A DNA stretch of 50,385 nt. Origin: an uncultured Treponema sp. (GTDB lineage: Bacteria; Spirochaetota; Spirochaetia; Treponematales; Treponemataceae). Positions within the stretch are counted from its first letter, which is position 1. Each line of letters opens with the position of its first letter. Below are positions 1,593-23,358 of the stretch, piece after piece. Below the pieces are notes generated by a model. The model was not told where the DNA came from, ran no database searches, and was given only the letters and a program-made list of their open reading frames with translations. The position numbers were made by a program, and so were the translations under genes. The DNA lies in contig CAZLNE010000001.1 in NCBI GenBank assembly GCA_964560975.1, forward strand, positions 5,545-55,929. Direction: 5' to 3'.

Positions 1593-2000
1593 TTACGACA
1601 TTAAAGATTCTTTGTACTCTACAGTATTCATAGAAAACAAATCATTTTCATTAGGTGAATCAAGCATACTTACCTTACCCTGAAAATCAACATTATCTTC
1701 TATCCTTATTTTTCGTGCAGTAACATTTCCAATAATTCTACTGCCGCTTTTCATTTCTACCCTATCCTGGGCTTCTAAATTACCAGTAACTTGACCAGAA
1801 ACAATTATTGAGTGTGCTAATATAGAATCAACCGAACATTGAGCCTTTTTATCAACTTCCAAATTACCTTCTGCTTCTATTGTTCCATCAAATTTTCCTG
1901 TTATAACAAGTTCATCCTTAAACTGCATTATTCCAATAAATTGAGTCTCGCTTCCTAGCACTGTAACGTTTTTTGATTTTTGCTGAAAATTACGAGCCAT
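1593..2000 (-). CDS. Bactofilin-family polymer-forming cytoskeletal protein
   Basis: 135 aa with the repetitive beta-helix pattern typical of bactofilins (VITGKFDGTIEAEGNLEVD..., VSGQVTGNLEAQDRVEMKSGSRIIGNVTARKIRIEDNVDFQGKVSM). An SD-like AAGGCAGG lies upstream of the ATG. Confidence 0.85.
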   Translation of the reverse strand: MARNFQQKSKNVTVLGSETQFIGIMQFKDELVITGKFDGTIEAEGNLEVDKKAQCSVDSILAHSIIVSGQVTGNLEAQDRVEMKSGSRIIGNVTARKIRIEDNVDFQGKVSMLDSPNENDLFSMNTVEYKESLMS

Positions 2001-8059: not shown

Positions 8060-8062
8060 TTA

Positions 8063-8134
8063 CATCTCCTAGGGGAATTGAACCCCTGTTGTCGGGATGA
8101 AAACCCGATGTCCTAACCACTAGACGAAGGAGAC
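8063..8134 (-). tRNA. tRNA-Glu (anticodon UUC), CCA not encoded
   Basis: The reverse complement is GTCTCCTTCGTCTAGTGGTTAGGACATCGGGTTTTCATCCCGACAACAGGGGTTCAATTCCCCTAGGAGATG. It folds as a 72-nt cloverleaf with a 7-bp acceptor stem, a 4-bp D stem, a 5-bp anticodon stem with loop TTTTCAT, and a 5-bp T stem with loop TTCAATT. The next bases are TA, not CCA. Confidence 0.93.
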
Positions 8135-8152
8135 ATCAACCTTACGTTCTGC

Positions 8153-8181
8153 AATATAACAAATTGAGAAAAAAATGTCAA
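8153..8181 (-). promoter_or_regulatory. Putative sigma70-type promoter for tRNA-Glu
   Basis: The minus strand reads TTGACA (8181-8176), a 17-nt spacer, then TATATT (8158-8153), about 18 nt upstream of the mature tRNA 5' end. Confidence 0.6.
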
Positions 8182-8217: not shown

Positions 8218-9468
8218 CTAATTCATTCCCATTCCTAATTTTGAAACTAATGTTTCCTTAAGCTTAATATAATCATCATCACTTAGGCCAAGCTGAGAAG
8301 CCCTGGTAAGCTCACTCATAGAAGCGGCATAATCACCCAAATGATAGTTCGACAGGGCTTTTCTATAATATACATGAGACTGATATTCATTAATTTGAAG
8401 AGACTTGTTAAAATACTTAAGCGCTTCCCGATGATCATTAAGAACACTTAACACAATACCAACGTAATAAAATGAACGGAAATTTGACGGATCGTATTCT
8501 GTACTCTTTATATAATCATGTAATGCAGACTCAAAATTATTTTGGGCAAAATAAGCCATTCCTCTATGTTTATAAATAACAGATAATACCACAGAGTTAG
8601 GAGCCGGCTCTGCATTAATAATTTGTGTGTAAATTTGTACAGCTTTACCTAAATCACCAGTGTTATGTGCATGAATTGCTTCCAAAATCATGTCGTCAAT
8701 TGTGCCGTGAACATAAGGCGATACTGCTTCTAAATTAGCAGCAGGTTTCTCTGCAGATTTGAAATCAACACTAGTTCTTGAAAGTTTATCGGCCTGTTCA
8801 TAAAAGGCTCCGCGTCTGTAATCTAACTCGCGGTTCAGTTTATTTTGATAATCTCTGATTTCTTGAAATACAATATCTGCAAGACTCAAGCTTGCATTCA
8901 TAGAAGCGAGTTTTCTGCGTAAAGGTAAGTCGAAGGGTGAAAACTCAGATTTATAGACAAGCTCGTGTTCAACTTCTGCCCACGCATCTTGAAGAATGGT
9001 GCGTATTTGAATTTCACATACAAGATTTTTCGGAACATCAACCTTTTCTGAACGAAATTCTTCAGGAATATCAACTAAGATATGAATTGATTCATATCCA
9101 AACTCACGAAAGGTACGATCAGCTCCCTTTCTTTCAATTTCTTTTATTTCAAAAATCTCAACAATCTGTTTTTCTATAGAAGTTAAATCTTCTAGAAAGG
9201 CACAAATAACTCTAATACCCAAAAGGTCAGTTAATGTTGGAAAGTTTTCTTCTCCCAATGCAGGTGGTCTTACTCGCAGAAGTTTTCTATAGTAACTATT
9301 AAAATCTTTTACACGAGCCTTAAAGGTAGGTTTTGACGGGAGGGTTAAATTCTTTTTAAGCTTCTGTTCAATGCTGAATAGGATAGCAGATAAAACGGGT
9401 CTATATAGTTCATATGATTCTTTGAGTTCTTCTTTATTAGGAAATGATCGTATACTGGATTGTGTCAT
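8218..9468 (-). CDS. Small alarmone synthetase (RelA/SpoT-type (p)ppGpp synthetase domain) fused to C-terminal TPR repeats
   Basis: Synthetase-domain motifs GIRVICAFLEDL, ESIHILVD and CEIQIRTILQDAWAEVEHELVYK. The C-terminal ~150 aa contain TPR-like repeats (GKAVQIYTQII..., YKHRGMAYFAQNNFESALHDYIKSTEYDP...). The track start at 9528 runs through the flaA terminator, so ATG 9468 (MTQSSIRS...) is preferred. Confidence 0.85.
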   Translation of the reverse strand: MTQSSIRSFPNKEELKESYELYRPVLSAILFSIEQKLKKNLTLPSKPTFKARVKDFNSYYRKLLRVRPPALGEENFPTLTDLLGIRVICAFLEDLTSIEKQIVEIFEIKEIERKGADRTFREFGYESIHILVDIPEEFRSEKVDVPKNLVCEIQIRTILQDAWAEVEHELVYKSEFSPFDLPLRRKLASMNASLSLADIVFQEIRDYQNKLNRELDYRRGAFYEQADKLSRTSVDFKSAEKPAANLEAVSPYVHGTIDDMILEAIHAHNTGDLGKAVQIYTQIINAEPAPNSVVLSVIYKHRGMAYFAQNNFESALHDYIKSTEYDPSNFRSFYYVGIVLSVLNDHREALKYFNKSLQINEYQSHVYYRKALSNYHLGDYAASMSELTRASQLGLSDDDYIKLKETLVSKLGMGMN

Positions 9469-9473
9469 ACTCA

Positions 9474-9502
9474 ATAGTACCACGGAAAAAATGATTTGAC
9501 AA
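9474..9502 (-). promoter_or_regulatory. Putative promoter for the SAS-TPR gene, with leaderless geometry
   Basis: The minus strand reads TTGTCA (9502-9497), a 17-nt spacer, then TACTAT (9479-9474). Only 5 nt (TGAGT) separate it from ATG 9468, and there is no SD. Confidence 0.4.
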
Positions 9503-9525
9503 TTAAAACAATCCGACGAAAAGCA

Positions 9526-9556
9526 CAAAAAAAAGAGAGCAGAAAATCTGCCCTCT
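9526..9556 (-). terminator. Rho-independent terminator after flaA
   Basis: The minus strand reads AGAGGGCAG-ATTTT-CTGCTCTCT (9-bp stem with one mismatch) followed by a T-run of at least 8. Confidence 0.6.
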
Positions 9557-9581: not shown

Positions 9582-10622
9582 CTATTCTGCTTCAAGTGAA
9601 GAAGTAAAAGCTTCTTCTTGAGCCATCTTGTCTTTTTCTAAGAAACGAAGAACCTGTTTATCACCGAATTTTGCCATTTCATAATTCTGTTTAGAAGTTT
9701 CTTTAGCATTAATAATACCCCAAAGATCTTCATCAGCAATGTCGCGTTCTGTTGAAAGTACAGCCTTATCAAAGATAATTTTTACGTCTTTGAAATAACC
9801 AATGAAATCATCGCCATTATGCATTGCATCACGTGTAATCTGGAAACCTATGAACTTTACAAAAGGAAGTCCGCGTGGATAAATTGGAACAATGCGAATT
9901 TCTCTCTGGCGGATTTCTGTAACATACTGTGGGTTATTCCACTTAAGTTCTCTCCAGCCGTCAAAACCAAGGTAACCCATGAAATAACGTCTTTCAGTAT
10001 TATCTGTGTCTTTTAACACAACATATAAACCATGGGGGTAGTTCATTCCCATTGTTGTTACAGAAAGAGCTTTAACAGTACCTACATTCTTTACAATTCC
10101 ATAACCATCTTCAAAACGTGTCTTACCGCTTGCTTTTTCTTCAGCAGTCTGAGGCTGAATTTGACCATTTTCATCAGCAGTAGCCATTGGCTCATAGGCA
10201 GGGATTTCAAAAGCAGGCTTAATGAACGCATTGGAATTAACCATAGCATTGGGGAAAAGTATTCTTACACCCATTACATTTTTACCAGCAAAAGGTACCT
10301 TAGCAGTGTCCCTTACAGGTGCCGGCACAACAGTTGATGTTGCTATACTTACTACAGTTTTTGCAGAAGAGTTAAGCTCTACTTCCCAGTTTGGCAGGCT
10401 GAGAGATGTTTTCATCAAAGCCTTCTGTTCCTCTGTAAAAGTAGCCCCTGCAGCGATACCGTAATTCATTACAGATCGTCTGTTTTGGGTGGGATTTTCG
10501 TTTTCATCAGCAATAATATCAGCATCCAAAATCGTAAAATCAATAATTGTTGCTTCTTCTGCAACCATAAAAGATCCAATAAGCAAAAACGCCATTACAA
10601 CTAAAATGAAAGTCCTTTTCAT
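9582..10622 (-). CDS. flaA: Periplasmic flagellar filament outer-layer (sheath) protein FlaA
   Basis: Signal peptide MKRTFILVVMAFLLIGSFMVA. Long collinear resemblance to treponemal FlaA as I remember it (IIDFT.L.ADI.AD, EEQKALM.SL....WEV.LNSSA, EEKASGK.RFEDGYG.VKNVG, MNYPHGLYV, YFMGYL.FD.W.EL.WNNP.Y, GYFKDVKII.DKAVLST.RD.ADEDLWGI). SD GGAG lies 6 nt upstream of the ATG. Confidence 0.9.
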   Translation of the reverse strand: MKRTFILVVMAFLLIGSFMVAEEATIIDFTILDADIIADENENPTQNRRSVMNYGIAAGATFTEEQKALMKTSLSLPNWEVELNSSAKTVVSIATSTVVPAPVRDTAKVPFAGKNVMGVRILFPNAMVNSNAFIKPAFEIPAYEPMATADENGQIQPQTAEEKASGKTRFEDGYGIVKNVGTVKALSVTTMGMNYPHGLYVVLKDTDNTERRYFMGYLGFDGWRELKWNNPQYVTEIRQREIRIVPIYPRGLPFVKFIGFQITRDAMHNGDDFIGYFKDVKIIFDKAVLSTERDIADEDLWGIINAKETSKQNYEMAKFGDKQVLRFLEKDKMAQEEAFTSSLEAE

Positions 10623-10666: not shown

Positions 10667-10694
10667 AGTATACGCATGATAAACGTTTTGTCAA
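10667..10694 (-). promoter_or_regulatory. Putative sigma70-type flaA promoter
   Basis: The minus strand reads TTGACA (10694-10689), a 16-nt spacer, then TATACT (10672-10667). Confidence 0.5.
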
Positions 10695-10720: not shown

Positions 10721-11212
10721 TTAGTAATCGTATATTTTACTACTTCCAATGTACAAGTTTATTATATCAATATTTCTGAAATTTCGAAACACATTTTTTC
10801 TAAAAATTTCAGCTCCTTCCTTGTTATTTGAAGAATCATTACCTGTAATATACAGTGCTTCTTCAGATAAGGTCACGTATAAGGTTTTATCTGCTACAAA
10901 ACAGGATAAAACCTTTGTTCCCCGAGGGAACAGCAGTCTATAACGATCTCCTATAGGTCCAAGTACAATATCTTCTATAAACTTCCGAAGGGTATTATCT
11001 TTAGCTACCTCAGGAAGAAACCTGGATTCTACATATAGACCGTCTTTATTCATATGCTCAAAACACACTATATAACGATTTTTCGAGTCATTTACAATCC
11101 ACAAAACAATCGAACAAATGCTGATGCATACAAGTAAAATAGCTAAAATACGGATTCTTACGTCTTTTAAGGTTTTCACCAAGTCTTCAAATACTTTTAA
11201 TACTATGCTCAT
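10721..11212 (-). CDS. GerMN-domain-like membrane-anchored protein
   Basis: N-terminal TM helix (ILAILLVCISICSIVLWIV) and a GerMN-like pattern (FIEDIVLGPIGDRYRLLFPRGTKVLSCFVADKTLYVTLSEEAL). A 4-nt overlap with the upstream amidase stop is the common amidase-GerMN pairing. Confidence 0.55.
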   Translation of the reverse strand: MSIVLKVFEDLVKTLKDVRIRILAILLVCISICSIVLWIVNDSKNRYIVCFEHMNKDGLYVESRFLPEVAKDNTLRKFIEDIVLGPIGDRYRLLFPRGTKVLSCFVADKTLYVTLSEEALYITGNDSSNNKEGAEIFRKNVFRNFRNIDIINLYIGSSKIYDY

Positions 11213-12246
11213 CGTGTCCCCGTAAAACCTCTAGACTGCTCAAAATGGGTTATAAAAGCTCCCAGTCCATTATATATCCCAAGGGCAATTTTGCGCAAGT
11301 ATATTTTATCATTTAATAGGCTTGCATCCTGCAAATTTGTGATAAATCCTAGTTCTATAAGTACACTCGGCATGTGAGCGTTTCGAACAACAAACCATTC
11401 CTCTTCCTTTATTCCTCTATTTGACATTTTCTGTCCAATTTGGTCATCCATTCCTTCGAGTATAAATTTAGCAATAAGTATACTTTCAGTGGTATATTCC
11501 TCTTCCATCATAGAATTAAGTATAGGAAGCAGATCCTTATCTACTCCGGAATCAGATAAAACACTTCTTCTGTAGCCCGGACTAAGATACCATACCTCGT
11601 AGCCTCCGGCTTTTTTATCAAAGGCTGCATTCACATGAACAGAAACATAGAGTATCGCCTCGTTGTCCTCCAGTTTTACTGAATTGGCAATATCTACACG
11701 CTGTTCGAGAGTTAAATAGGTGTCTGTTGAGCGGGTTAAAAGTATTTTTTTATCAGGATAGGTTTTTGATAAAAGCGAATGTAATTCAAGCGCTGTGGTT
11801 AGTGCAACATCTTTTTCTTGTATAGTCACTTTTTTACCATCGATAGTATGAGTATCAACTGCACCAGGATCCTTTCCGCCATGGCCTGGATCTATGAGTA
11901 TGGCTCCTACCCTGAACTCTGTATCACCAGTAAAGGTTGTGAAAAGATCTTCTGCAGTCTTGAGAAGTGAATTCGAAAGATACAGACTATTGCTGCTTAC
12001 TAGAGGAGGATCAATTATAAGGAGTTTTTTATAATCCAGAAGAGCAATGCTTTCTCCAGATATAAAACGTATAGTATGTCCATTTTTTTGTAAAACTCCG
12101 CTTCCTGTAAGAGGGTCCCAATAAACATAGGCATCAAGGCTTTCTACGGCAGTTACTGCATTGGTATAGCCGGAAGGTACCGTATCTGCAAAAAGAAGAG
12201 TTAAAGAGAAAACTGTAAGCAAACTAAAAAATAGCCCTTTTTTCAT
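11209..12246 (-). CDS. N-acetylmuramoyl-L-alanine amidase (Amidase_3 / AmiC-like)
   Basis: Signal peptide, then ILIDPGHGGKDPGA, LYVSVHVNA, and PSVLIELGFITN (zinc-ligand and fold motifs of Amidase_3). Confidence 0.88.
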   Translation of the reverse strand: MKKGLFFSLLTVFSLTLLFADTVPSGYTNAVTAVESLDAYVYWDPLTGSGVLQKNGHTIRFISGESIALLDYKKLLIIDPPLVSSNSLYLSNSLLKTAEDLFTTFTGDTEFRVGAILIDPGHGGKDPGAVDTHTIDGKKVTIQEKDVALTTALELHSLLSKTYPDKKILLTRSTDTYLTLEQRVDIANSVKLEDNEAILYVSVHVNAAFDKKAGGYEVWYLSPGYRRSVLSDSGVDKDLLPILNSMMEEEYTTESILIAKFILEGMDDQIGQKMSNRGIKEEEWFVVRNAHMPSVLIELGFITNLQDASLLNDKIYLRKIALGIYNGLGAFITHFEQSRGFTGTR

Positions 12247-13844
12247 CTCTGTTCCTCATCGAGCATATATAGAATTCCCTGTAAACCGCCGCGTATAAAA
12301 TAATGCCAAAACCGTTGTAAACAAACAGATTTTGATAGTTTTTCTTCTTTTTCTGCAATAGAAAAAAACTGTGTAAGCGAAAAATATGCCGACCTGTGAT
12401 TCCAATCAAGCATTCTTTCGTCATCTCTAAAGAATGGTTTTTTGATCACAAGATGTTGTAAAAAAATCTGCTTGAGATCCTTTATACTTACTGTAGCACC
12501 TTTTTCACCTGATATGAGTTCATCGTATTGTTTTTTGCTAATTTGATAGGCTGAAGGCGGAAATTCTGTAAAAACGTCTTCTTCTAAAAAATCCTTTGTG
12601 CTTTTTTGCTCAGGCGTAAGTCTTAAAACTATGGTTTTTACAGCGAGTTCTGCACTCTTCACCGCCTCTTCCCTGGTTTGGGCACAGCTTATAATATTGC
12701 CGCATTTTTCTACGTTGTTAACCGGAAAACTTACAAAATCTCCTTCTTTAGCCCTTGGAAAGATATCTTTTACTTGCGCACTGTTTTTTGCTTCGTCAAA
12801 TCCTTGTATAGATGCTATTTTTCCTGGAATGGAAATCCAGGCTCTCTCTGCGCTTACTTGATGAGACTCCAGAGAAATGCCTGTGAGCGGAATATAAGGC
12901 TCATCGCCGAGCGCTATTTGTAAGGCAAGTTTTGTCAGGTTTACACCAGAAGCATAGGGATAGGTCCAGCCTGACATGTATCCGCCTGAAAGACGGGCTG
13001 CTATTTCACCAATTTTAGGGCCGTCTTTTGTAAGTTTTACGTCGCCCTTTGCGGCACCGCAGTGTAAGCCAAGCGCAAAAACACCTTTTTTAAACTCATC
13101 AATGAGAAGATTTTTCTCGTTTATGGAAAATTTCGTCGGCATGGTGTGACCCATTTCTATAAAATACGGCGGATAATAAATATGTCTGTCTGCAAAACCG
13201 GTTATGTTTATTGTACCATTAAAAACGAGGGAATCTATAGAAAACTCAGGACCATCCATGTATTCTTCTATGATTGCTCTCTTGGAGCGGGAATATGAAA
13301 TCGCGGTTTTTACAGCACTTACTAATTCGTCAAAATTCCTGGCCATTCTGCATCCGCGGGCGCCCATGTTATCGACAGGTTTTACGACAAGGGGAAAGTT
13401 ATTAGATTCAAATCCATTTGTGTGAAGAAGGCCTTCCAGTGTTTCTGTTCCGTTGTCTGCTTCCGAGACTTCAAAAAATTTTGGTGAATTTACTCCGTGC
13501 GAGGAAAAACACTTTCTCATACGGATTTTATCGCTTGCATTTAATGAAGCTTCATATGAGTGTGAGAATAAACCGCACACTTCAGCAATTTTTGCGACTG
13601 CGGCAGAAAAGTCTGTTCCGGCAGTAAAAACGGCATCAATACCTGTGGTTTTTTTTAGATGTAAGGCATATTCACACAAGGCGCTGGTGTCTTTAAGATC
13701 AATGAGTGTAAATTCATCACATAAAGGAACACAATAGGCATCTTTATTTCCATCTGCTACTGTAACGCGGCAGCCGAGTTCTTTTGCAGTCATAATGGCA
13801 GGTTTTTGCATAAATCCTGCACCAAGGATAAAAACATTTCTCAT
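12243..13844 (-). CDS. ATP-grasp family carboxylate-amine ligase-like enzyme with an uncharacterised C-terminal extension of about 120 aa
   Basis: Rossmann-like pre-ATP-grasp N-terminus (MRNVFILGAGFMQKPAI...), FPLVVKPVDNMGARGCRMA, AIIEEYMDGPEFSIDSLV. The substrate is unknown. Confidence 0.78.
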   Translation of the reverse strand: MRNVFILGAGFMQKPAIMTAKELGCRVTVADGNKDAYCVPLCDEFTLIDLKDTSALCEYALHLKKTTGIDAVFTAGTDFSAAVAKIAEVCGLFSHSYEASLNASDKIRMRKCFSSHGVNSPKFFEVSEADNGTETLEGLLHTNGFESNNFPLVVKPVDNMGARGCRMARNFDELVSAVKTAISYSRSKRAIIEEYMDGPEFSIDSLVFNGTINITGFADRHIYYPPYFIEMGHTMPTKFSINEKNLLIDEFKKGVFALGLHCGAAKGDVKLTKDGPKIGEIAARLSGGYMSGWTYPYASGVNLTKLALQIALGDEPYIPLTGISLESHQVSAERAWISIPGKIASIQGFDEAKNSAQVKDIFPRAKEGDFVSFPVNNVEKCGNIISCAQTREEAVKSAELAVKTIVLRLTPEQKSTKDFLEEDVFTEFPPSAYQISKKQYDELISGEKGATVSIKDLKQIFLQHLVIKKPFFRDDERMLDWNHRSAYFSLTQFFSIAEKEEKLSKSVCLQRFWHYFIRGGLQGILYMLDEEQR

Positions 13845-13854
13845 ACGTAATTAA

Positions 13855-16419
13855 CTATAATTTATTGGGGATTTTAATACAATAGACTTCAAAGGTATCT
13901 CCTAATGAAAACATTTTGCTGATAACTGTACATAACGAAAACAAAAGGCTTCCCTTTTTTGCTCCTGTTTTTTGAATTATGGGAAAGCGTTCGCTATGAT
14001 GCCCTGTACAAACAATTTTTTTTACCTTAAAACCATTGTTGTGTAAGATTTTTTTGCAATTTTTTAATTCCCATAAGGTAAAGTGGTCCAAGGGGCTTTG
14101 CAAAAAAAACTTTTTTTCTGAAAATGTGCGCGATACGCCGCAAGCATTCGGCGTTGAAAATGCAAAGACTCCTTGATCAGTAAGAATATCATGTGTTTTT
14201 ACTAATACATCGTGCAGATTTTGAAAGTGTTCTATAACAAACCACATAGTAACTGCATCAAATTTTGTAAGGTTAAACTCTTTTTTAATATCTATTTTTG
14301 GATACTGTGCTGTGCAGGACTGAATTTTCAATTCATCCCTTACATAGCTGATTGCATCCGAGGAAATATCTGTTCCATAAGGAATAAACCCAGCATCCTT
14401 CGCTGCCGATAAAAAAGGTCCATAGGCACAGCCTACATCGAGAATGGTTCTTTTTACAGAAGTGTTCAATATTTTTTTTATTGTATGTACCCGGACGATG
14501 CCCATTTGTTTTATCTGCTCAAAGTCTTCAAGATACGTTTTTCCATACTGCTTTTTGTATTCTGTGAAAAAATACGATTTTGTATACGCAAGAGCACCGC
14601 CAGAAGTCCATGAAGGATAAAGCATTGTACAGTTTCTGCACCGTCTGATAGTTTTATTTTCAGCCCGTTCTATTACGCTATCTATGCTGTCTCGTTTTCC
14701 GCAAAGAGGACAATAATGTTCGCTTCCCTCAGAAAGGGACCGGATCAAATCAGGCAAGTTTTCTTCGTCTTCCGGCCCTGCATTATACAAGGGAGCAAAA
14801 TCAGGGTGCAGAGTTTTTAATCGTTCAGGTTTTTTGAGTACTCTTATAAAACTCTTTACTGATAGGTTTTTATTTGAAATATATGAAAATCCATATTTTT
14901 TTGCTAAGATTCGGTGCAGCGTTGTTGTTTCTAAAAGAATGAGAGGTATACCCAAAGAAACCGTTTCAAAGGCAGTAAGACCATAGTGGGTTATAACCAA
15001 ATCATATTCATGCAGTTTTCTAGATAACTGTAATATAGGCTTACGATAATTTATGCTGCTGCTAAGCTCCGGTGCTTCGTTTTGAAGGTTAGTACTATAC
15101 AAATCTGGAACTGTTGTTATTACATCGATTGAAAAAGAAGGAAAAATCTCTGATGCTGCCTTTGCACTCAAAAGAGAAGCCTTGTATGAAAGTTTTGCCG
15201 GGTCCTCCCCTCCCAAGCAAACTAGAATCTTCGCTTGATTTTTAGTATAAAAACTATCTGATAGCGGAACGAATTTTTCTCTTTTAGGCACATCCAAAAG
15301 ACGTATATTTTTATGATTTACCCTCTTTTGTTCTAGAGAAGGAATAATTTCAATGAGATACTGCATGGAATCTGTGTGAGAAGAACCGTCATCAATCGAC
15401 ACAACTGGGCCCAGGGAACTAAACAGCAGAGCATCTTCTTCTTTCATACTGAAAAAGTCGGCTGCGACAAGACTATAAGACTTTCTACGCTGAAAACTTT
15501 CAAGATTGCTTATGATTTGGGTATCAAATAATTCATTACTGTTAAGAGCGTCATCAATAAGAGCTCTTACACTCTGAGAACAGTCCGGAGGAATGTATAA
15601 ATCTGCTGATAACTTGGATGCTAAGGCTATCATGCGTTTGGCGTGTCCTGTTCCAAAACCCGGTTTTGTCTGCGGGATGCAAAGAACAGGGTGCCGAATA
15701 TGACTCTGAGAGAGAGCGTAAATTATCTGAGCAGCAGTATAGGGTTCTATAGATATGTTCATAGTATCAGCTGGTGTAATAAAATCTGCAATCCGCAAGG
15801 CTCTCCGGTAATCTGCATAGGTGTCGATGGTAGTTCGTAATTCAGGATGCGCCCATTGAGGAGGAGACGGCAGAAACGCACAATTCCACGTATCAGTGTG
15901 GTTATACAGCGCGGGACCTACATGCTCAGTATCGTAGGGGTCAGAGGTCAGCGTCTGAGACTTCAAGAGTGATTGAGCATTAAGTATTTCGACACCGCTT
16001 CCATGAGGGAGACCAGTATAAGTGCAATAATCGTATTGGTTGTTGCTGGCCTCCATTTGAAGAACTTCCTGTAAAAGACCTTGAGCTGCCTCGTAAAATA
16101 TAAAGGGGTTATCTCCTGTTGCTCTAACTATCCAGGAAACTTTTTTTCCTTGCTCCTGCTCTATCAGCCGTATAAGTGAGCAAAAGCGGTCAAGTACGTC
16201 ATTTTCGCTGCCGGCAAAGCATTTCCAAAGGTGTTTTTGTGCTATTGGTGCAAGCGTCTTATATGATGAAATATCAGTGGCAAGATAAAACTCATCACAT
16301 TCGAGTTTTTTCATTGCGCACAGAGTCCACTCTATACAGGTTTGCGAACCCAAAGGAAGCAAAGCCTTTGAAGGAAGCCTTGTTGAACCGAGGCGGCACT
16401 GAATAATGACTACGTTCAT
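13855..16419 (-). CDS. Three-domain protein: SpsF/acylneuraminate-type cytidylyltransferase, PseG/SpsG-like (GT28 C-terminal type) domain, and zinc-ribbon plus class I SAM methyltransferase
   Basis: The N-terminus reads MNVVIIQCRLGSTRLPSKALLPLG (cytidylyltransferase signature). The middle has GFGTGHAKRMIALASKL, ILVCLGGEDP and YDLVITHYGLTAFETVSLGIPLILL (PseG/MurG-like). The C-terminus has CPLCG...CRNC followed by ILDVGCAYGPFLSAAKDAGFIPYGTDIS (SAM motif I). Confidence 0.75.
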   Translation of the reverse strand: MNVVIIQCRLGSTRLPSKALLPLGSQTCIEWTLCAMKKLECDEFYLATDISSYKTLAPIAQKHLWKCFAGSENDVLDRFCSLIRLIEQEQGKKVSWIVRATGDNPFIFYEAAQGLLQEVLQMEASNNQYDYCTYTGLPHGSGVEILNAQSLLKSQTLTSDPYDTEHVGPALYNHTDTWNCAFLPSPPQWAHPELRTTIDTYADYRRALRIADFITPADTMNISIEPYTAAQIIYALSQSHIRHPVLCIPQTKPGFGTGHAKRMIALASKLSADLYIPPDCSQSVRALIDDALNSNELFDTQIISNLESFQRRKSYSLVAADFFSMKEEDALLFSSLGPVVSIDDGSSHTDSMQYLIEIIPSLEQKRVNHKNIRLLDVPKREKFVPLSDSFYTKNQAKILVCLGGEDPAKLSYKASLLSAKAASEIFPSFSIDVITTVPDLYSTNLQNEAPELSSSINYRKPILQLSRKLHEYDLVITHYGLTAFETVSLGIPLILLETTTLHRILAKKYGFSYISNKNLSVKSFIRVLKKPERLKTLHPDFAPLYNAGPEDEENLPDLIRSLSEGSEHYCPLCGKRDSIDSVIERAENKTIRRCRNCTMLYPSWTSGGALAYTKSYFFTEYKKQYGKTYLEDFEQIKQMGIVRVHTIKKILNTSVKRTILDVGCAYGPFLSAAKDAGFIPYGTDISSDAISYVRDELKIQSCTAQYPKIDIKKEFNLTKFDAVTMWFVIEHFQNLHDVLVKTHDILTDQGVFAFSTPNACGVSRTFSEKKFFLQSPLDHFTLWELKNCKKILHNNGFKVKKIVCTGHHSERFPIIQKTGAKKGSLLFSLCTVISKMFSLGDTFEVYCIKIPNKL

Positions 16420-17399
16420 ACGGTTTTATCATCCCATTGAGAAATCAGGTTTGCTGCATCTATTTTGAACCGGTACTTATTTGCTTCTACCCATAATCGG
16501 GCAGCTTTAAACATAGAAATTGAGTTAAAAAAAGAAGAAGAACGTCGCGCAAATCCGAAAAAAGAACTTATTGGAATATAGGCATAGTCACTGTTATAAA
16601 GCGGAAGCAGATTTTTCAAGTAAAAACGTAAATACGAGGTATCTACCGTTGTATCTTCTATAGGCGTACTATCTTCATAGGAAAGACGAAATAAGGGTGA
16701 ACAAAGTATTTTTTCGCCCCAAAGCCAGCTTCGCATGCAAAAATCGAGATTTTGCCAATATGGCGAGCAGATAGTATAGTCAAAACCGCCAAGGTGAATA
16801 AATCTTTTTCGATCGTAAATACCGATGAAATCGAAATTGTAAAGACTTGGACTTAAATCATATAACACCTGAGCCGGACTTACAGAAAACGCTGATTTTT
16901 CAATGAGAGGCTTCATTTTAACCAAAACGTTCTGCATCTGATCTGTTAACAGAACTGGTGCGGTACACAGGGCCTCTGCTTCTTGAAGCCGCTGCAGAAG
17001 CAGGTCAGAAAGCATATTTACTCGGGTTTTTATGTCGTCCCAAAGAACAAGAACATAGGGACTTTCCAGCTCACTCATGCTGATATTTATTTTTTCACCG
17101 GTAGTAATCTTTTCATGCGGAATAATAAATTTAACACAAGGATAGGTCCGGCTCAGTTCATCGATACTGTAATTATCACTGTGATGTTCAACTGATATAA
17201 TCGATTCAAACCCGTTTTTCATGAGCGATTCGAAAATCTGATTTTTATAATGACTTATCTCGCGGGTCAACACAACCACAGAAACAGGGTGTGACGCATA
17301 GGGATTCTTCTCTGTTCCCCCGAGGATAGTTCTCTCTATCTGCTTTTCGTTAAAAGTTAAAGGTATAGTATTCATCACACTTCCCGCATTTTTCACCAT
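16416..17399 (-). CDS. GT-A / family-2-like glycosyltransferase (tentative)
   Basis: VSVVVLTRE start of a GT-A fold, a possible DxD-like LVLWDD, and GGFDYTICSPYWQNLDFCMRSWLWGEKI, which resembles the GT2 (E/D)DxDFCxR segment. The start is either 17399 or ATG 17375. Both overlap the upstream stop. Confidence 0.5.
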   Translation of the reverse strand: MVKNAGSVMNTIPLTFNEKQIERTILGGTEKNPYASHPVSVVVLTREISHYKNQIFESLMKNGFESIISVEHHSDNYSIDELSRTYPCVKFIIPHEKITTGEKINISMSELESPYVLVLWDDIKTRVNMLSDLLLQRLQEAEALCTAPVLLTDQMQNVLVKMKPLIEKSAFSVSPAQVLYDLSPSLYNFDFIGIYDRKRFIHLGGFDYTICSPYWQNLDFCMRSWLWGEKILCSPLFRLSYEDSTPIEDTTVDTSYLRFYLKNLLPLYNSDYAYIPISSFFGFARRSSSFFNSISMFKAARLWVEANKYRFKIDAANLISQWDDKTV

Positions 17400-18924
17400 A
17401 GTTGTTAATACAATGGTTTTCCAGTTCTTTAGTTACATTATTCCATATTTTTTCTAAAGAATCAGTATATATAGTACCCATTACAAAATGCGAGTCCAAG
17501 GCCGCTGACGGAAGAACAGCTCTGCACATCGGCACAGTACCATCTATAAATATGGACACATCATTTCGTAAGTGCCAGCAGGGATTTCGAGTGACAGGAC
17601 TCAAGTCTGCAACTTTTTTATCAGAAAGCCCGCCTGCAAAATTATCGTACTTTTGGATGATTAATTCGCCGCTTTCCTGGGCCTTCCAGTACCGATAAAA
17701 GGCTTCCAGTTCTGCTTCGTTCTCCTTAAGTCTCATAAATTGCGGATACACAGCACCTGGAAAGTACTTTCTTAGTAATTCAACATTTTTTACTGCCTTG
17801 TTAAGTGTAAATTCATCGCGATGAAGAGATGTATACATTGCTTCAGTTGAAGCATCGACGCTTACAATCCAATATATGCTCTTTTGTCCATTTGTACGTT
17901 CACCGCTTTTCTTAACAAGTGCACTGATTCGTTCTACCTGTGCTTCTGTAAACTCAAACGAACACGTTTCAATAATGAGCGAGAGTTCTTTTTTGGCTAA
18001 AACAAGACTAATAAAGTCTTCTATTTCAGGGTGAAGTAAGGCCTCTCCCCACAAAGATAAGGAGATAACGGCATCTTCACTGTACAAGGAAATTTTTTCA
18101 ATGATATGCGAGAACTTTTCCTTTGATAAAAACTTATCAAGCTGCCTTTCTTGTTTTCCGTTCTGAACTTGATTTAAAAAGGCCGGATACGGACAATATG
18201 TACACGATGAACTGCAGGGTAAAGAAATTTGAATAGCATAAAATGACGGCAATGTTTTAAGAATTTCTGGTGAACTGCAAATTTTTTCAAAACTTTCTTT
18301 GTTTTCTTGCAAGCGGGAAAACATCCTCGTACATGACAGAGTAGTTCTTTTAGTTCCGCAGTGAAACTGCAGGCGTAAGTAACGCAAATCATAAGGTGCT
18401 ATATAGGTTTCAATTTCAAACGAGTTAATATCAGTCTTTAATAGGTCAAAGAAAGTCTCTCTGTGAACTTTTTCTTCGTTTTTTTTACAAATATTCTTAA
18501 GTATACGCACTGTACCGGCATCAATAATTTCTGGAGTTATGCCGTAAGGAAAGCCTTCTGCAAAGGTGTATTCACAGTGATAGGTGTGATGAAGCGAAAC
18601 AATTTCCTTTGTGTATGAGGGATTAAGAAAAGGGCAATCGGCCCAGGCATAGACAGTAGTGGTGAATCCTTCTTTCTGCATGAGTGCATCAATATGATCG
18701 AGCAGCAGGCCGGTATTCCATGAAGGCTCTATGATCTGTTCAATAGGAATTAGAGAAGATACACTTATAGTAAGGTTTTCTTTTGAAAAAACTATAACCT
18801 TCTCTGCTCCTTCTAGGCCAGCAGCCCACTCAACTGATACATCAAAGGCTGATTTTCCATCAAACTCTTTTTTCAACGCATATCCGGTTAAATTTCCGGC
18901 AAATAGTATTACACAGGTTTTCAT
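17350..18924 (-). CDS. Radical SAM enzyme with a C-terminal SPASM-type Cys-rich domain and an N-terminal nucleotidyltransferase-like domain (spiro-SPASM-like)
   Basis: CX3CX2C motif LPCSSSCTYCPYP (18193-18216). C-terminal Cys clusters NPCWHLRNDVSIFIDGTVPMC and CINNYGEKCGKCDEY. The N-terminus MKTCVILFAGNLTGYALKKEFDGKSAF resembles MobA/cytidylyltransferase-type folds. ATG 18924 is preferred over the track start 19020, which would overlap the divergent gene. Confidence 0.8.
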   Translation of the reverse strand: MKTCVILFAGNLTGYALKKEFDGKSAFDVSVEWAAGLEGAEKVIVFSKENLTISVSSLIPIEQIIEPSWNTGLLLDHIDALMQKEGFTTTVYAWADCPFLNPSYTKEIVSLHHTYHCEYTFAEGFPYGITPEIIDAGTVRILKNICKKNEEKVHRETFFDLLKTDINSFEIETYIAPYDLRYLRLQFHCGTKRTTLSCTRMFSRLQENKESFEKICSSPEILKTLPSFYAIQISLPCSSSCTYCPYPAFLNQVQNGKQERQLDKFLSKEKFSHIIEKISLYSEDAVISLSLWGEALLHPEIEDFISLVLAKKELSLIIETCSFEFTEAQVERISALVKKSGERTNGQKSIYWIVSVDASTEAMYTSLHRDEFTLNKAVKNVELLRKYFPGAVYPQFMRLKENEAELEAFYRYWKAQESGELIIQKYDNFAGGLSDKKVADLSPVTRNPCWHLRNDVSIFIDGTVPMCRAVLPSAALDSHFVMGTIYTDSLEKIWNNVTKELENHCINNYGEKCGKCDEYYTFNF

Positions 18925-18949
18925 AGTATGAGTATCGGCAAAAAAAAGC

Positions 18950-18978
18950 TTGCGCAACAGAAAACAGTGAGATACACT
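18950..18978 (+). promoter_or_regulatory. Possible promoter for the alpha-glucosidase/transporter pair
   Basis: TTGCGC (18950-18955), a 17-nt spacer, then TACACT (18973-18978). SD GGAGGGG precedes ATG 19013. Confidence 0.3.
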
Positions 18979-19012
18979 AAAATGAAGTTTTTTTTCACGG
19001 AGGGGAAAAGCT

Positions 19013-20719
19013 ATGACCAAAAACGAAAGTACTTGGTGGAAAGAAAAGGCTGTTTATCAGATTTATCCTAGAAGCTTTTGCGACAGCAATGGTGACGGTA
19101 TAGGTGATATTCCAGGTATTATTTCGAAACTTGATTACTTACAAGATCTAGGCATTGGGGTTATTTGGCTCTCACCGGTGTATTGTTCTCCAAACGACGA
19201 CAACGGATACGACATAAGTAATTATTGTGACATTCAAAAAGAATTCGGCTCACTTAAAGATATGAAAAAGCTTATAAGTGAAGCAAAAAAAAGGGATATC
19301 CGCATTATTATGGATCTAGTAATAAATCATACATCGGATGAACACCCCTGGTTTATCGAAAGCCGCAAAAGTACCGATAACCCCTACCGTGACTATTATA
19401 TTTGGCGGAAAGGAAAAAAAAATCTCAAAAATTCGTCTAAGGTTCATCAAAAACCGCCAAATAACTGGTCAAGTTTTTTTTCGGGTCCTGCCTGGGAATA
19501 CGATGGAACCACAGGAGAATACTATCTCCATCTTTTTTCTAGAAAACAACCCGACTTAAACTACCAAAATCCTAAAGTTCTTGCTGAAATTAAGGAAATA
19601 CTCAAATTCTGGCTAGATATGGGTATTAGCGGTTTCAGATGCGATGTTATAAATGTAATTTATAAAACAAGTCTTGAAGATGGAAAAAGACGGCTTGCGT
19701 TGACAGGCCGTGAACATTATGTTTCTCAGGAAGGTTGCCATAAAATTTTACAAGAACTCAAACGCAGTGTTTTTAGCGGTTATAACTGTTTTACGGTAGG
19801 AGAAACAGTACTGGTCGATACTTCAATGGCCAATGATCTGTGTTCTTCTGAGCGCGGGGAACTCGATATGGTCTTCAGTTTTGAACATATGGATACTGAT
19901 CATATTAATAATAAGTGGTTTAAAATAAAGTTTAAGCCTGATAAATTTACCAAAGTATTAACAAAATGGCAGTCCTGTCTTGACTGGAATGCAAATTATC
20001 TTGAAAACCACGACCAAATTAGAAGTGTTTCCCGTTTTGGAAATGACTCCAAGTATCATCTAGTTTCTGCGAAAATGCTCGCAACACTCCTGTTAACTCT
20101 GAGAGGGACTCCTTTTATTTATCAGGGTGAAGAAATTGGAATGACAAATGCCTATTTTTCAGACATGAGTGAAATTAAGGATGTAGAATCACATTATGTT
20201 TATAACTTAGCTAAAAAAATGCATTTTCCGTCAAGCATCAGATGGAAGATGATTCAAAAATCTACTCGTGATCATGCGCGCACTCCCATGCAGTGGAACA
20301 GCCAGGAAAACGCAGGTTTTTCTCTCAAAGGAAAAGCAGAACCATGGCTTAGAATAAACAGCAACTTTAGAACAATAAATGTAGAAAGACAAACAGCAGA
20401 CGAAAACTCTATTTTATCCTGCTACAAAAAGTTGTTAGTATTGCGTAATAGTAAAAAATCACTTTTGAACGGAAGTTTTTTTGCACTTCCTGCACCAAAA
20501 AATACGTATTGTTTTGAAAGAGAATTAGATAATGAACGATGCCTTGTACTTTGCAACCTATCAGACAGTCAAGTAAAACTTACTAAGCTGCTGCAGACAC
20601 ACATAAAAAACGGCTCAATTCTTTACTCTAATTATTATAGAACCACAGTAAAGGATCTTTCCTGTTTAGACCCTTATGAGGCGGTCATACTAGAATCTAA
20701 TAAAGGAGATGCAAAATGA
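19013..20719 (+). CDS. GH13 alpha-glucosidase (oligo-1,6-glucosidase / trehalose-6-phosphate hydrolase type)
   Basis: WWKEKAVYQIYPRSFCDSNGDGIGDIPGI, DLVINHTSDEH, GFRCDVINV, VGETV and ENHDQIR match GH13 conserved regions I-IV. Confidence 0.9.
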   Translation: MTKNESTWWKEKAVYQIYPRSFCDSNGDGIGDIPGIISKLDYLQDLGIGVIWLSPVYCSPNDDNGYDISNYCDIQKEFGSLKDMKKLISEAKKRDIRIIMDLVINHTSDEHPWFIESRKSTDNPYRDYYIWRKGKKNLKNSSKVHQKPPNNWSSFFSGPAWEYDGTTGEYYLHLFSRKQPDLNYQNPKVLAEIKEILKFWLDMGISGFRCDVINVIYKTSLEDGKRRLALTGREHYVSQEGCHKILQELKRSVFSGYNCFTVGETVLVDTSMANDLCSSERGELDMVFSFEHMDTDHINNKWFKIKFKPDKFTKVLTKWQSCLDWNANYLENHDQIRSVSRFGNDSKYHLVSAKMLATLLLTLRGTPFIYQGEEIGMTNAYFSDMSEIKDVESHYVYNLAKKMHFPSSIRWKMIQKSTRDHARTPMQWNSQENAGFSLKGKAEPWLRINSNFRTINVERQTADENSILSCYKKLLVLRNSKKSLLNGSFFALPAPKNTYCFERELDNERCLVLCNLSDSQVKLTKLLQTHIKNGSILYSNYYRTTVKDLSCLDPYEAVILESNKGDAK

Positions 20720-22089
20720 ACGAAAAGATAATTAAGAAAAACCGATACACCTTCGGAATGGGAACTATTGGACGCGATATGGTCTATTCGATGGTAAGCA
20801 TGTACCTCATCTTTTACCTAACTGATATTTTAAAGCTTAACGACACAGCAATCCTGTATTGTACAAACATAATGCTTGGGGCACGAATTTTTGATGCATT
20901 GAATGATCCAATTATGGGCACCATTGTTGATAATACAAAAACACGCTTCGGCAAATTTAAACCATGGATAGTCTTTGGAGCAATCTTCAGCAGTATTATT
21001 ACAGTTCTCCTTTTCACAGATATGGGTTTAACCGGGAGTAAATACATTGTTGTATTTGGGTTTCTTTATGTTTTCTGGGGCATGGCATTCACCACAAACG
21101 ATATTTCATATTGGTCAATGATGCCGTCGCTCAGTACTTCACAAAAGGAACGTGAAAAAATAGGCGCTATTGCTAGAATCTGTGCAAATATCGGCTTGTT
21201 TTTTGTCGTAAGCGCCATTGTCCCCATTACAAACACTCTTGGTGAAGTTTTCGGCAGTATGAGAACCGCATATATGGTATTTGCAATCGGCATTGTTTTT
21301 ATTCTTCTTGTATTTCAAGCGGTGACAGTATTTGGAGTTAAAGAAGTTGATACTCCAGTAGTGACAAGCGACAGAAAAGAATCCACAAGCCTAAAAGAAA
21401 TGTTTAAAGTTATTTTTAAAAATGATCAGCTTTGCGTAATAGCAATTTCAATGAGTCTCTTTATGATCGGTTACATGACAACAACAAGTTTTGGATTATA
21501 TTTTTTCAAATATGCATTTAAAAATGAGGGTATGTATTCAATTTTTGCAATCATCTTAGGTGTTGCCCAGCTTTCCGCCCTAAGTGTGTTTCCTCTTTTT
21601 AGTAAAAAATATAACAGAAAACAGCTCTACACTGCATCCATCATTCTCGTTTTAATCGGCTACATAGTATTCTTCTTCTCACCAATGAATATGATTCCCA
21701 TAGGCATAGCAGGATTATGCATCTTTTTCGGCCAAGCCTTTATTCAGCTTTTAATGCTCATGTTCCTAGCAGATACTGTTGAATACGGACAATGGAAGTT
21801 AGGTAAACGAAATGAAGGAGTCACATTCTCACTCCAGCCTTTTATAAATAAACTCGGCGGTGCAGTAGGTGCAGGTATTGTAGGTTACGTTGTAGTGCTT
21901 TCAGGAATTAATAGAGCTATAACGCCGGAAGATGTCACTTCTGAAGGATTATTATTATTGAAAATTGCAATGCTTATACTCCCCCTTATTTCAATTATTG
22001 CAGGTTTTATAGTATACTTAACGAAATTCAAGATTGATTCTGTTTTCTTTGATAAAATTGTATCAGATTTGGAAGCCGCAAAAAAATAG
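20716..22089 (+). CDS. Glycoside-pentoside-hexuronide (GPH/MelB-type) cation symporter
   Basis: 457 aa with about 12 TM helices and a MelB-like N-terminus (YTFGMGTIGRDMVYSMVSMYLIFYLTD, DALNDPIMGTIVDNTKTRFGKFKPW). A 4-nt overlap with the glucosidase stop. Confidence 0.85.
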   Translation: MNEKIIKKNRYTFGMGTIGRDMVYSMVSMYLIFYLTDILKLNDTAILYCTNIMLGARIFDALNDPIMGTIVDNTKTRFGKFKPWIVFGAIFSSIITVLLFTDMGLTGSKYIVVFGFLYVFWGMAFTTNDISYWSMMPSLSTSQKEREKIGAIARICANIGLFFVVSAIVPITNTLGEVFGSMRTAYMVFAIGIVFILLVFQAVTVFGVKEVDTPVVTSDRKESTSLKEMFKVIFKNDQLCVIAISMSLFMIGYMTTTSFGLYFFKYAFKNEGMYSIFAIILGVAQLSALSVFPLFSKKYNRKQLYTASIILVLIGYIVFFFSPMNMIPIGIAGLCIFFGQAFIQLLMLMFLADTVEYGQWKLGKRNEGVTFSLQPFINKLGGAVGAGIVGYVVVLSGINRAITPEDVTSEGLLLLKIAMLILPLISIIAGFIVYLTKFKIDSVFFDKIVSDLEAAKK

Positions 22090-22134: not shown

Positions 22135-23358
22135 TTGAGCGAAATAAATTTTCAAGACTTCTCATCAATTACCATGACGGTATCTGATCTAACTGGAATA
22201 ATAAAAGAATTACTCGAAGGATCTTTTCCCCTAGTCAATGTTGAAGGTGAAATCTCTAATTACAGACCTTCAAGTACAGGACATATTTATTTTACTCTAA
22301 AAGATGAGCATGCTTCAATTTCTGCAGTACTTTTTAAAGGAAAGTCCCGTTACCTATCATTCACACCGAAAGACGGTATGAAAGTTAGAGCGAAGGGGGC
22401 TTTATCTGTATATACTCAGCGCGGCTCGTATCAGATTGTCATAGATTCGATGGAGGAAACAGGAAGCGGAGATATTTTAAAACTTCTAGAGCAGAGGAAA
22501 AGAGAACTCGCCGAAGAAGGTTTGTTCGATAGTGCAAAAAAACAAAATATTCCATATTTTCCGCGGTGTATTGGTGTAGTAACGAGCCCTACCGGAGCTG
22601 CATTAAGAGACATTCTTCAAATATTGAATCGAAGGAATCCAAAGGTTTCTGTAATTATATTTCCTTGCTCTGTACAGGGAAGCGATGCTGGAAAAACTAT
22701 TGCAAAACAAATTGATATTGCAAATATACATAAACTTTGCGATGTTCTCATCGTAGGCCGAGGCGGAGGCTCACTGGAAGACCTGCTACCCTTTTCTGAG
22801 GAAGAAGTAGTACGCTCAATTGCTGCATCAGCAATACCGGTTATATCAGCAGTTGGACATGAAATAGACTGGGCTCTATCTGACTATGCAGCAGACGTTA
22901 GAGCTCCAACTCCTTCAGCTGCGGCCGAACTTGCGGTTCCGCCGTTGGATGAAATTGAGCAAGTCATTCAAAACTATAAAGAAAGTTTTGAAAGAATAAT
23001 AACGCATAAACTTGAACACACAAAGGCCCTCGTACGCAGTTTTTCGGCAGATAACCTTGAGTTACGGTTTAGAAGCATTGAGCAGCCCATTTTACAGCGC
23101 TTCGATGATGCAAAAGAGAATCTTCTTGATGCTATGAAAACACTCGTACAGGAACGCAGGCAGGCCTTGGAGATGGCGTATCTTAATCTTAAAGCGCTTA
23201 ATCCGCTTGAAATACTGCAAAGAGGATTTTCTGTGGTAACCGATGCGCAAACAGGTAAGGTAATTACCCGCTCAGATCAAACCAGGGCAGGTACAATTCT
23301 TACTATCAAGCTTTATAAGGGTGAAATTAGTGCACAGGTAACCGATTCGATAACATAA
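22135..23358 (+). CDS. xseA: Exodeoxyribonuclease VII large subunit
   Basis: OB-fold N-terminus (VEGEISNYRPSSTGHIYFTLKD), GVVTSPTGAALRDI, and GRGGGSLEDL. TTG start with AAGGAG 8 nt upstream. Confidence 0.9.
   Translation: MSEINFQDFSSITMTVSDLTGIIKELLEGSFPLVNVEGEISNYRPSSTGHIYFTLKDEHASISAVLFKGKSRYLSFTPKDGMKVRAKGALSVYTQRGSYQIVIDSMEETGSGDILKLLEQRKRELAEEGLFDSAKKQNIPYFPRCIGVVTSPTGAALRDILQILNRRNPKVSVIIFPCSVQGSDAGKTIAKQIDIANIHKLCDVLIVGRGGGSLEDLLPFSEEEVVRSIAASAIPVISAVGHEIDWALSDYAADVRAPTPSAAAELAVPPLDEIEQVIQNYKESFERIITHKLEHTKALVRSFSADNLELRFRSIEQPILQRFDDAKENLLDAMKTLVQERRQALEMAYLNLKALNPLEILQRGFSVVTDAQTGKVITRSDQTRAGTILTIKLYKGEISAQVTDSIT

Follow-up and report, generated by a model that had tools for sequence, protein, structure and literature searches.

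Six closely packed minus-strand genes upstream of the flagellar sheath gene flaA, in a 50,385-nucleotide (nt) stretch of DNA from an uncultured Treponema sp. (contig CAZLNE010000001.1, positions 5,545 to 55,929; this whole stretch is called the window here), constitute a unit that hundreds of Treponema and related species carry and that has no assigned function. The products are, in order, a radical S-adenosylmethionine (SAM) protein of the spiro-SPASM family, a soluble protein with the glycosyltransferase (GT)-A fold (ORF5, after its open reading frame), a triple fusion of cytidylyltransferase, PseG-like and methyltransferase domains, an ATP-grasp ligase, a cell wall amidase and a GerMN-domain protein (Table 1). 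The reading that we favor, at about even odds (probability ~0.5), is that two modules lie side by side: a cytoplasmic module for activation, tailoring and transfer of a cytidine monophosphate (CMP)-linked sugar (module 1, the first four genes), and a cell-separation amidase pair (module 2) followed by flaA. Each component is a member of a known family, and together they follow the logic of a glycan-tailoring cluster; the unit itself is undescribed.

Organization and conservation of the unit

A scan of species-representative genomes finds a relative encoded in at least 584 of 600 candidate stretches. The loci compared here are the best 80 of these relatives (at least 584), all of them Treponema-like, with additional distant loci (L081-L101) inspected alongside. 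Every sufficiently long locus has the same order: spiro-SPASM, ORF5, cytidylyltransferase/PseG-like/methyltransferase, ATP-grasp, amidase, GerMN, FlaA, a RelA/SpoT-tetratricopeptide repeat (TPR) protein and a DinG helicase. The same gene set recurs beyond Treponema, in L081, L084/85, L099, L100 and L101, with cytidylyltransferase and PseG-like/methyltransferase as separate genes (a split also seen in L035) and with xseA/xseB as the divergent upstream neighbor. The arrangement is therefore ancient and not fortuitous. A first-pass annotation of the window, made from its sequence alone, had named conservation of the six-gene order in relatives as a check on its reading; the order is conserved, in about 80 Treponemataceae loci and in distant spirochaetes, and the recurrence of the same order with tight junctions across about 90 loci is far above chance.

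The six reading frames lie exactly where that annotation placed them, as do the three ATGA overlaps (16416-16419, 12243-12246 and 11209-11212) and a single 10-nt gap (13845-13854). Junctions among the six genes range from -26 to +10 nt in the window; in related loci, those other than spiro-SPASM/ORF5 are mostly from about -5 to +50 nt. For the overlap of the spiro-SPASM stop with the start of ORF5, two endpoints had been left in play (17350-17375 or 17399); conservation selects the ATG at 17375 (protein MNTIPL...) and an overlap of 26 nt, and exactly this length is found in 77 of 78 loci. The overlap encodes the C-terminal ...DEYYTFNF of spiro-SPASM and the N-terminal MNTIPLTF... of ORF5, both nearly invariant. 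At its other end, the spiro-SPASM gene starts with the ATG at 18924 (MKT...). A TTG at 19020 was considered as its start codon and rejected, because all homologues begin with MKT or MKN.

A signal scan finds no strong terminator or promoter inside the six genes, and the only strong Shine-Dalgarno sequence among these genes is that of flaA (AAAGGAG, 5' of its ATG). Judged from sequence, the six genes are best read as one compact transcription unit, with a promoter that is presumed to lie in the 88-nt divergent region (18925-19012) ahead of spiro-SPASM. Scanning of this region yields no strong promoter consensus, and an Rfam search for a leader regulatory RNA or riboswitch reported tRNA alone.

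Two separable modules

The composite nature of the unit is seen in loci that have one part of it and not the other. At the T. denticola (Treponema denticola) flaA locus (L092: metagenome contig ODVE01000336.1, 3000-8677, matched by 11 of 12 tested published primers; PMC9481697), TDE1716 is a 125-residue glyoxalase-family protein, TDE1715 phosphoglycerate kinase, TDE1714 the amidase, TDE1713 the GerMN protein, TDE1712 FlaA (349 residues, as published) and TDE1711 RelA/SpoT-TPR. The four sugar genes are all absent from this locus. TDE1716-1713, phosphoglycerate kinase included, are co-transcribed with flaA (PMC9481697). Functionally unrelated genes thus ride in the T. denticola flaA operon, and co-transcription at this locus is no proof of shared function.

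The complementary case is L086, where spiro-SPASM, an ORF5 homologue (hhalign probability 100%), cytidylyltransferase and PseG-like/methyltransferase are followed by unrelated genes, with no amidase, GerMN, flaA or ATP-grasp. L082 and L083 are without an adjacent flaA. Module 1 also sheds accessory steps lineage by lineage: PseG-like/methyltransferase in L078 and L059 (which have a cytidylyltransferase-only protein), ATP-grasp in L059 and L086, ORF5 in L083. These losses, together with that of the radical-SAM cysteines (see below), are what make module 1 resemble a tailoring pathway. Two invariant blocks emerge, amidase-GerMN(-flaA) and SPASM-cytidylyltransferase, and the unit is best read as composite, two functional modules having kept side by side since early spirochaete evolution. 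The coupling of sugar genes to an amidase that the first-pass annotation had singled out is old and common, but it is not obligatory (L092 and L086 do without it), and a functional link, which some lineages contradict, is at most a possibility.

In module 2, the amidase matches Amidase_3 (PF01520) at 161 bits and the AmiA/B/C equivalog models at 72-78 bits, not reaching their cutoffs of 400-700. It corresponds by position to T. denticola TDE1714 and, by position only, to Borrelia burgdorferi BB_0666; BB_0666 has been listed as a divisome Ami, and bb0665-bb0667 called an operon "promoting cell division". The GerMN protein (Germane, PF10646, 28.1 bits against a cutoff of 23) is homologous to TDE1713 (E = 5e-12). 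GERMN domains are present in all spirochaete genomes, and in Halothermothrix, a member of another phylum, the domain is fused to Amidase_3 (PMC2732212). This GerMN protein probably binds peptidoglycan as the partner of the amidase. Signal or anchor sequences are found in the amidase, GerMN and FlaA (PF04620, 258 bits), but not in the first four proteins. As had been proposed, flaA has its own promoter, which is close to consensus (TTGACA-16-TATACT, 10694-10667), with an equivalent in 55 of 57 loci (a perfect TTGACA -35 element, ~42-53 nt 5' of the flaA ATG), and the GerMN-flaA gap is 67-187 nt in all measured related loci.

The spiro-SPASM protein

The first gene product matches the spiro-SPASM model TIGR04321 at 537.7 bits (cutoff 250) over residues 36-556 and model positions 2-510 of 510 (these residue numbers refer to the long reading frame rather than to the MKT-start protein). 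Its radical-SAM core (PF04055, 37 bits) retains the CX3CX2C motif in the window copy (CSSSCTYC), and the SPASM model PF13186 is matched at 29.4 bits (cutoff 21.5). In the AlphaFold model (predicted local distance difference test, pLDDT, 85.3) the radical-SAM part matches anSME, BtrN, SuiB, DesII and BlsE by Foldseek, and a family profile matches BtrN by sequence among solved structures (5.6e-9). The N-terminal domain matches a Leptospira cytidylyltransferase (6OEW), IspD and KdsB by Foldseek; the nucleotidyltransferase-like N-terminus that had been proposed for this protein is therefore clear in structure, although weak in sequence (Pfam E = 0.025). Because the arginines of the R..S.R.P.K motif, which the neighboring true cytidylyltransferase retains, are missing from it, this domain is probably a binding rather than a catalytic one.

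A full SPASM domain has seven cysteines (CX9-15GX4C ... CX2CX5CX3C ... C). The C-terminal domain of the window protein has four conserved cysteines (CX12GX4C ... and a terminal CX2C, the protein ending in CDEYYTFNF), which rules out a full SPASM domain with two auxiliary clusters; its sequence pattern fits a twitch domain with one auxiliary cluster, of the BtrN type.

An unexpected property of the family is how often the cysteines of the SAM cluster are gone. CX3CX2C is missing in 53 of 80 species loci, in 31 of 120 close cluster representatives and in 90 of 141 representatives at 50% identity, and the sequences that replace it are many and mutually different. On a neighbor-joining tree of 87 taxa the intact motif is ancestral and has been lost at least 7 times independently (cultured T. 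socranskii, T. porcinum and T. lecithinolyticum are among the losers), with intact copies persisting in the distant lineages L081, L084, L099 and L100. Kept in spite of the loss are the auxiliary-cluster cysteines, an SLWGE motif, the N-domain motifs and the 26-nt overlap with ORF5. The term "radical SAM/SPASM enzyme" of the first-pass annotation thus suits the window copy as far as its SAM motif goes, but not most homologues, and the seven-cysteine SPASM pattern is absent. Since CX3CX2C is lost while the rest is conserved, the conserved role of the family, on this sequence record, cannot be SAM cleavage and radical chemistry. It looks as if radical editing were a further tailoring step that lineages can dispense with, or as if the protein served chiefly as a partner to the GT-A and cytidylyltransferase proteins.

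This last thought can be taken further: spiro-SPASM would contain Fe-S, bind nucleotide and act as a partner or regulator of the GT-A protein and the cytidylyltransferase, with radical chemistry an ancestral extra that survives in a minority of lineages, the window's included. We hold this proposal tentatively, at somewhat less than even odds. The repeated losses, the retention of everything else and the missing arginines of the N-domain all speak for it; the ancestral state, the intact copies in four distant lineages and a window copy with all motifs required for SAM cleavage speak against it. It is compatible with the two-module reading rather than exclusive of it. The repeated loss of cysteines from an otherwise conserved protein is, in any event, a clear case of passage from radical-SAM enzyme to pseudoenzyme. 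The earlier statement that the spirochaete SPASM family has no assigned function agrees with the literature, in that the term "spiro-SPASM" was found in no paper.

ORF5

ORF5 has no sequence match in Pfam (even at E <= 10), NCBIfam or the PDB. Its AlphaFold model (pLDDT 88.5) has a Rossmann-like GT-A fold, whose top Foldseek matches are polypeptide N-acetylgalactosamine (GalNAc)-transferases (E = 5e-13, or about 1e-12; template-modeling, TM, scores 0.55-0.65). At E <= 0.001 the structure search yields 181 PDB matches; the 50 listed are without exception GT-A polypeptide GalNAc-transferases. The first-pass annotation had called this protein GT2-like. The GT-A fold of the model bears this out, but membership in the family does not follow, PF00535 being unmatched at E <= 10; some homologues are annotated as "GT2 family glycosyltransferase" and one (P0165) has a precomputed PF00535 match. 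At the DxD position, homologues have DD, DS, ND or DT, with at least one Asp always present and no invariant column. That spiro-SPASM and ORF5 share an invariant dual-coding overlap of 26 nt suggests that they form an obligate two-protein complex. No published function was found for ORF5 or for the triple fusion.

The triple fusion and the ATP-grasp ligase

Pfam and NCBIfam profile searches support the cytidylyltransferase, methyltransferase, ATP-grasp, Amidase_3, GerMN and FlaA assignments of the first-pass annotation. Residues 1-~210 of the fusion are a cytidylyltransferase of the KdsB/SpsF type (CTP_transf_3, 88.6 bits against 22.6) with an intact R-x-x-S-x-R-x-P-x-K motif (CRLGSTRLPSK); its PDB match is, again, the Leptospira cytidylyltransferase 6OEW (1.1e-15). 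Residues ~250-500 form a PseG/MurG-like GT-B domain with the motif GTGHAKR, in which G32, G34, H35 and R38 of G-x-G-H-x-x-R are invariant in 10 distant homologues; we take G-x-G-H-x-x-R to be the N-terminal PseG signature with its catalytic histidine. Residues ~560-854 are a Zn-ribbon and a class I SAM methyltransferase (Methyltransf_23, 69.5 bits). An anti-phage defense system was considered and rejected; PADLOC gave a generic methyltransferase-domain match alone. The ATP-grasp protein matches LAL_C2 (55.7 bits), ATP-grasp_4 (46.9 bits) and ATP-grasp_3; its nearest solved relative is the L-amino acid ligase 3VOT (1.4e-21), and BacD is also matched. Domain families and folds agree that the first four genes resemble nucleotide-sugar machinery, as had been proposed.

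The ATP-grasp protein also matches Ddl and pseudomurein-ligase models, and the PseG-like domain shows a weak likeness to MurG (Glyco_tran_28_C, E = 0.25). Both observations bear on a different role for module 1, in which it would modify cytoplasmic peptidoglycan precursors. The ATP-grasp ligase would attach to the stem peptide either an amino acid or an acyl group, a sugar would be put on by the MurG-like and GT-A domains, and the modified wall would be recognized or processed by the amidase and GerMN protein; all six genes would then be one functional system. The ATP-grasp/amidase junction, the tightest downstream link (ATGA in the window, -17 to about +50 nt in most loci), is in keeping with this, as is its survival in L082 and L083, two loci without an adjacent flaA. 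Set against these points, T. denticola retains amidase-GerMN without module 1 at the locus, L086 retains module 1 without an amidase, L059 lacks the ATP-grasp gene, and the phosphoglycerate kinase that is co-transcribed with the T. denticola amidase demonstrates that unrelated genes ride in the operon. To our knowledge, CMP-sugar chemistry is also without precedent in peptidoglycan synthesis, and we regard the wall route as improbable. If the wall were the target, module 1 would represent a wall modification of a new kind.

In sequence, the cytidylyltransferase domain matches KdsB-type subfamilies and the Leptospira enzyme best, which brings in another class of product. Module 1 might make an acidic decoration resembling CMP-3-deoxy-D-manno-octulosonic acid (CMP-Kdo) for a glycolipid, lipoprotein or capsule-like polymer, and its position beside the amidase and flaA would reflect inheritance of gene order, without any common function. 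The presence of two transferase-like domains (GT-A and GT-B), the separability of module 1 from module 2 and a patchy loss of tailoring steps that is typical of surface-glycan loci are consistent with this. However, no inspected locus has a flippase, polymerase, priming transferase or lipid-carrier enzyme in or beside the unit, the module 1 proteins are all soluble, and variable surface-glycan loci seldom keep their gene order so stable over such evolutionary distances. This seems to us rather unlikely.

A proposed pathway and its candidate acceptor

For module 1 of the favored two-module reading, we infer substrates, an order of reactions, a protein complex and an acceptor as follows. All four proteins are cytoplasmic. 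The PseG/MurG-like GT-B domain would process a uridine diphosphate (UDP)-sugar; the KdsB/SpsF-type cytidylyltransferase would produce a CMP-activated acidic sugar, to which the methyltransferase would attach a methyl group and the L-amino-acid-ligase-type ATP-grasp protein an amide-linked substituent. Spiro-SPASM would then grip the nucleotide-sugar through its degenerate cytidylyltransferase-like N-domain and, where its radical-SAM cluster survives intact, the window copy being such a case, would edit the sugar in the manner of BtrN, using its single auxiliary cluster. The GT-A protein, whose translation starts inside the last 26 nt of the spiro-SPASM gene and which is probably in complex with the spiro-SPASM protein, would pass the product to its acceptor. 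Module 2 would consist of a periplasmic cell-separation amidase and its peptidoglycan-binding GerMN partner, with flaA following under its own promoter.

The leading candidate acceptor, suggested with a good deal of doubt, is an acidic O-glycan on the FlaB flagellin core, where the FlaA sheath docks. The FlaB glycan of T. denticola is a 2-methoxy-4,5,6-trihydroxyhexanoyl nonulosonic acid that touches the FlaA sheath (PMC13439194). By analogy, the methyltransferase would suit its O-methyl group, the ATP-grasp protein its amide-linked acyl group, and the cytidylyltransferase/PseG-like domains its CMP-activated sugar. A flagellin acceptor is also favored by the nearest structural neighbors of the GT-A protein, which are Ser/Thr protein O-glycosyltransferases. 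If module 1 does make or tailor a glycan of the flagellin core, its retention beside flaA would be explained, and a Maf-free route of flagellin glycosylation would be at hand.

Several observations weigh against this scheme. The only spirochaete with a known flagellin glycan, T. denticola, is reported to have a Maf-type flagellin transferase and lacks module 1 at its flaA locus. Module 1 is packed more tightly to the amidase than to flaA, which has its own promoter. The DxD position of the GT-A protein is variable, and its matches to polypeptide GalNAc-transferases may reflect the abundance of such structures in the PDB. The cytidylyltransferase domain scores at most 36 bits with KdsB-type models, with no PseF or LegF model among its NCBIfam matches. 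The PseG-like call of the first-pass annotation has the conserved G-x-G-H-x-x-R motif on its side, but the score with the PseG model TIGR03590 (45.1 bits, E = 9.4e-12, model positions 13-267 of 280) is well under the cutoff of 153.55. Finally, the 50-kb window has no NeuB-type synthase, PseB/LegB dehydratase or PseC/LegC aminotransferase; the earlier judgment that this is not a standard pse/leg locus holds for the window as a whole.

A gene of the DegT/DnrJ/EryC1 aminotransferase family (the PseC/LegC family) lies ~9.4 kb upstream of spiro-SPASM in L084 and L099 alone. It is at the locus edge (positions 1-634), with housekeeping genes between it and spiro-SPASM.

A more sweeping version of the scheme would be a spirochaete-specific machine in which a mostly pseudoenzymatic SPASM protein holds the nucleotide-sugar for the GT-A protein, decorating flagellin core or wall and tying this decoration to cell separation and FlaA sheath assembly, and which T. 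denticola-type lineages have replaced with a Maf/Pse system. To this we give little credence.

Features of the window and neighboring genes

Table 1. Positions of the six-gene unit, flaA and associated signals in the window
Feature	Position	Strand	Remarks
spiro-SPASM protein	17350..18924	-	524 aa; TIGR04321 match
ORF5, soluble GT-A-fold glycosyltransferase-like protein	16416..17375	-	319 aa; AlphaFold/Foldseek only
Triple fusion cytidylyltransferase/PseG-like/methyltransferase	13855..16419	-	854 aa; Pfam, NCBIfam, PDB
ATP-grasp ligase, L-amino-acid-ligase type	12243..13844	-	533 aa; LAL_C2, ATP-grasp_4, ATP-grasp_3
Secreted Amidase_3 N-acetylmuramoyl-L-alanine amidase	11209..12246	-	345 aa, signal peptide; PF01520
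Membrane-anchored GerMN-domain protein	10721..11212	-	163 aa; PF10646
flaA, periplasmic flagellar sheath protein	9582..10622	-	PF04620
Dual-coding overlap, SPASM C-terminus/ORF5 N-terminus	17350..17375	-	26 nt
flaA sigma-70-type promoter TTGACA-16-TATACT	10694..10667	-	best promoter match within 8-19.3 kb
Intrinsic terminator 3' of flaA	9532..9558	-	strong; 12-bp stem, then T-run
Divergent intergenic region, SPASM/alpha-amylase gene	18925..19012	.	88 nt

Located 3' of flaA is a gene for a fusion of RelA/SpoT (small alarmone synthetase-like) with TPR (8218-9528, minus strand), which recurs at almost every related locus and in T. denticola (TDE1711). It is followed by a tRNA-Glu gene (anticodon TTC; 8062-8135, minus strand) with a near-consensus promoter of its own (TTGACA-17-TATATT, 8153-8181), and then by a gene for a DinG-type helicase with an N-terminal RadC-like JAB domain (5540-8017, minus strand) that is conserved downstream in many related loci.

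On the other side, an alpha-amylase gene and an MFS_2 sugar transporter gene (19013-22089, plus strand) lie between spiro-SPASM and xseA (22135-23358). The pair looks like an insertion, since xseA, often together with xseB, is the immediate divergent neighbor of spiro-SPASM in most relatives; L001 has both genes and L078 the amylase gene. Large SpoIIE-domain proteins are encoded ~5 kb upstream of spiro-SPASM in L081, L100 and L101. The window itself has a GAF-SpoIIE phosphatase gene followed by a small HATPase_c_2 kinase-like gene (31328-33921, plus strand), which are likely to be a partner-switching pair. A fliF-fliG-fliH-fliI-fliJ export/rotor block (44330-49881, minus strand) is at the far end of the window, unlinked to flaA, and a bactofilin gene (1593-2000, minus strand) adjoins the apolipoprotein N-acyltransferase gene (2013-3644).

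Comparison with known systems

ORF5 has the GT-A fold in common with the polypeptide GalNAc-transferases (GT27) and GT2 enzymes (TM 0.55-0.65). It differs from them in its low sequence identity (11-15%), lack of a Pfam GT2 match, variable DxD and lack of a lectin domain. The spiro-SPASM core is closest to BtrN, the twitch radical-SAM 2-deoxy-scyllo-inosamine dehydrogenase, which is its best solved-structure match by sequence and a top match by fold; the two have the same four-cysteine auxiliary-cluster pattern (C...C...CX2C), and the substrate of BtrN is carbohydrate-type. Unlike BtrN, spiro-SPASM has a ~220-residue cytidylyltransferase-like N-domain and a SPASM Pfam match, and the cysteines of its SAM cluster are lost in most of the family.

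The triple fusion can be compared with PseF/PseG and with SpsF/SpsG of Bacillus subtilis, in which a CTP_transf_3 cytidylyltransferase is likewise joined or adjacent to a PseG-like GT-B protein (HP0326 of Helicobacter pylori is a PseF-PseG fusion). The G-x-G-H-x-x-R signature of these proteins is invariant in the window family, but the PseG score is below cutoff, PseF and LegF are unmatched, and a Zn-ribbon methyltransferase is fused in addition. Genes for PseB, PseC, PseH and PseI are absent from the window.

The flagellin glycosylation islands of Campylobacter, Clostridium and T. denticola (Maf/Pse) resemble the unit in combining cytoplasmic nucleotide-sugar genes with a methyltransferase and an ATP-grasp protein, in their lineage-variable gene content and in their adjacency to a flagellar filament gene. 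In contrast to these islands, the window has no Maf/FlmG transferase and no NeuB-type synthase, and the neighboring gene is that of the sheath protein FlaA, not of a flagellin; T. denticola, which has a Maf system, is without module 1 at its flaA locus.

The closest parallel to module 2 is provided by B. burgdorferi bb0665-bb0667 with flaA (bb0668) and by T. denticola TDE1716-TDE1712, where Amidase_3, GerMN and flaA follow one another in the same order as in the window, with sigma-70 promoters at the flaA loci, as here; in T. denticola, glyoxalase and phosphoglycerate kinase stand at the place of the window's four sugar-pathway genes.

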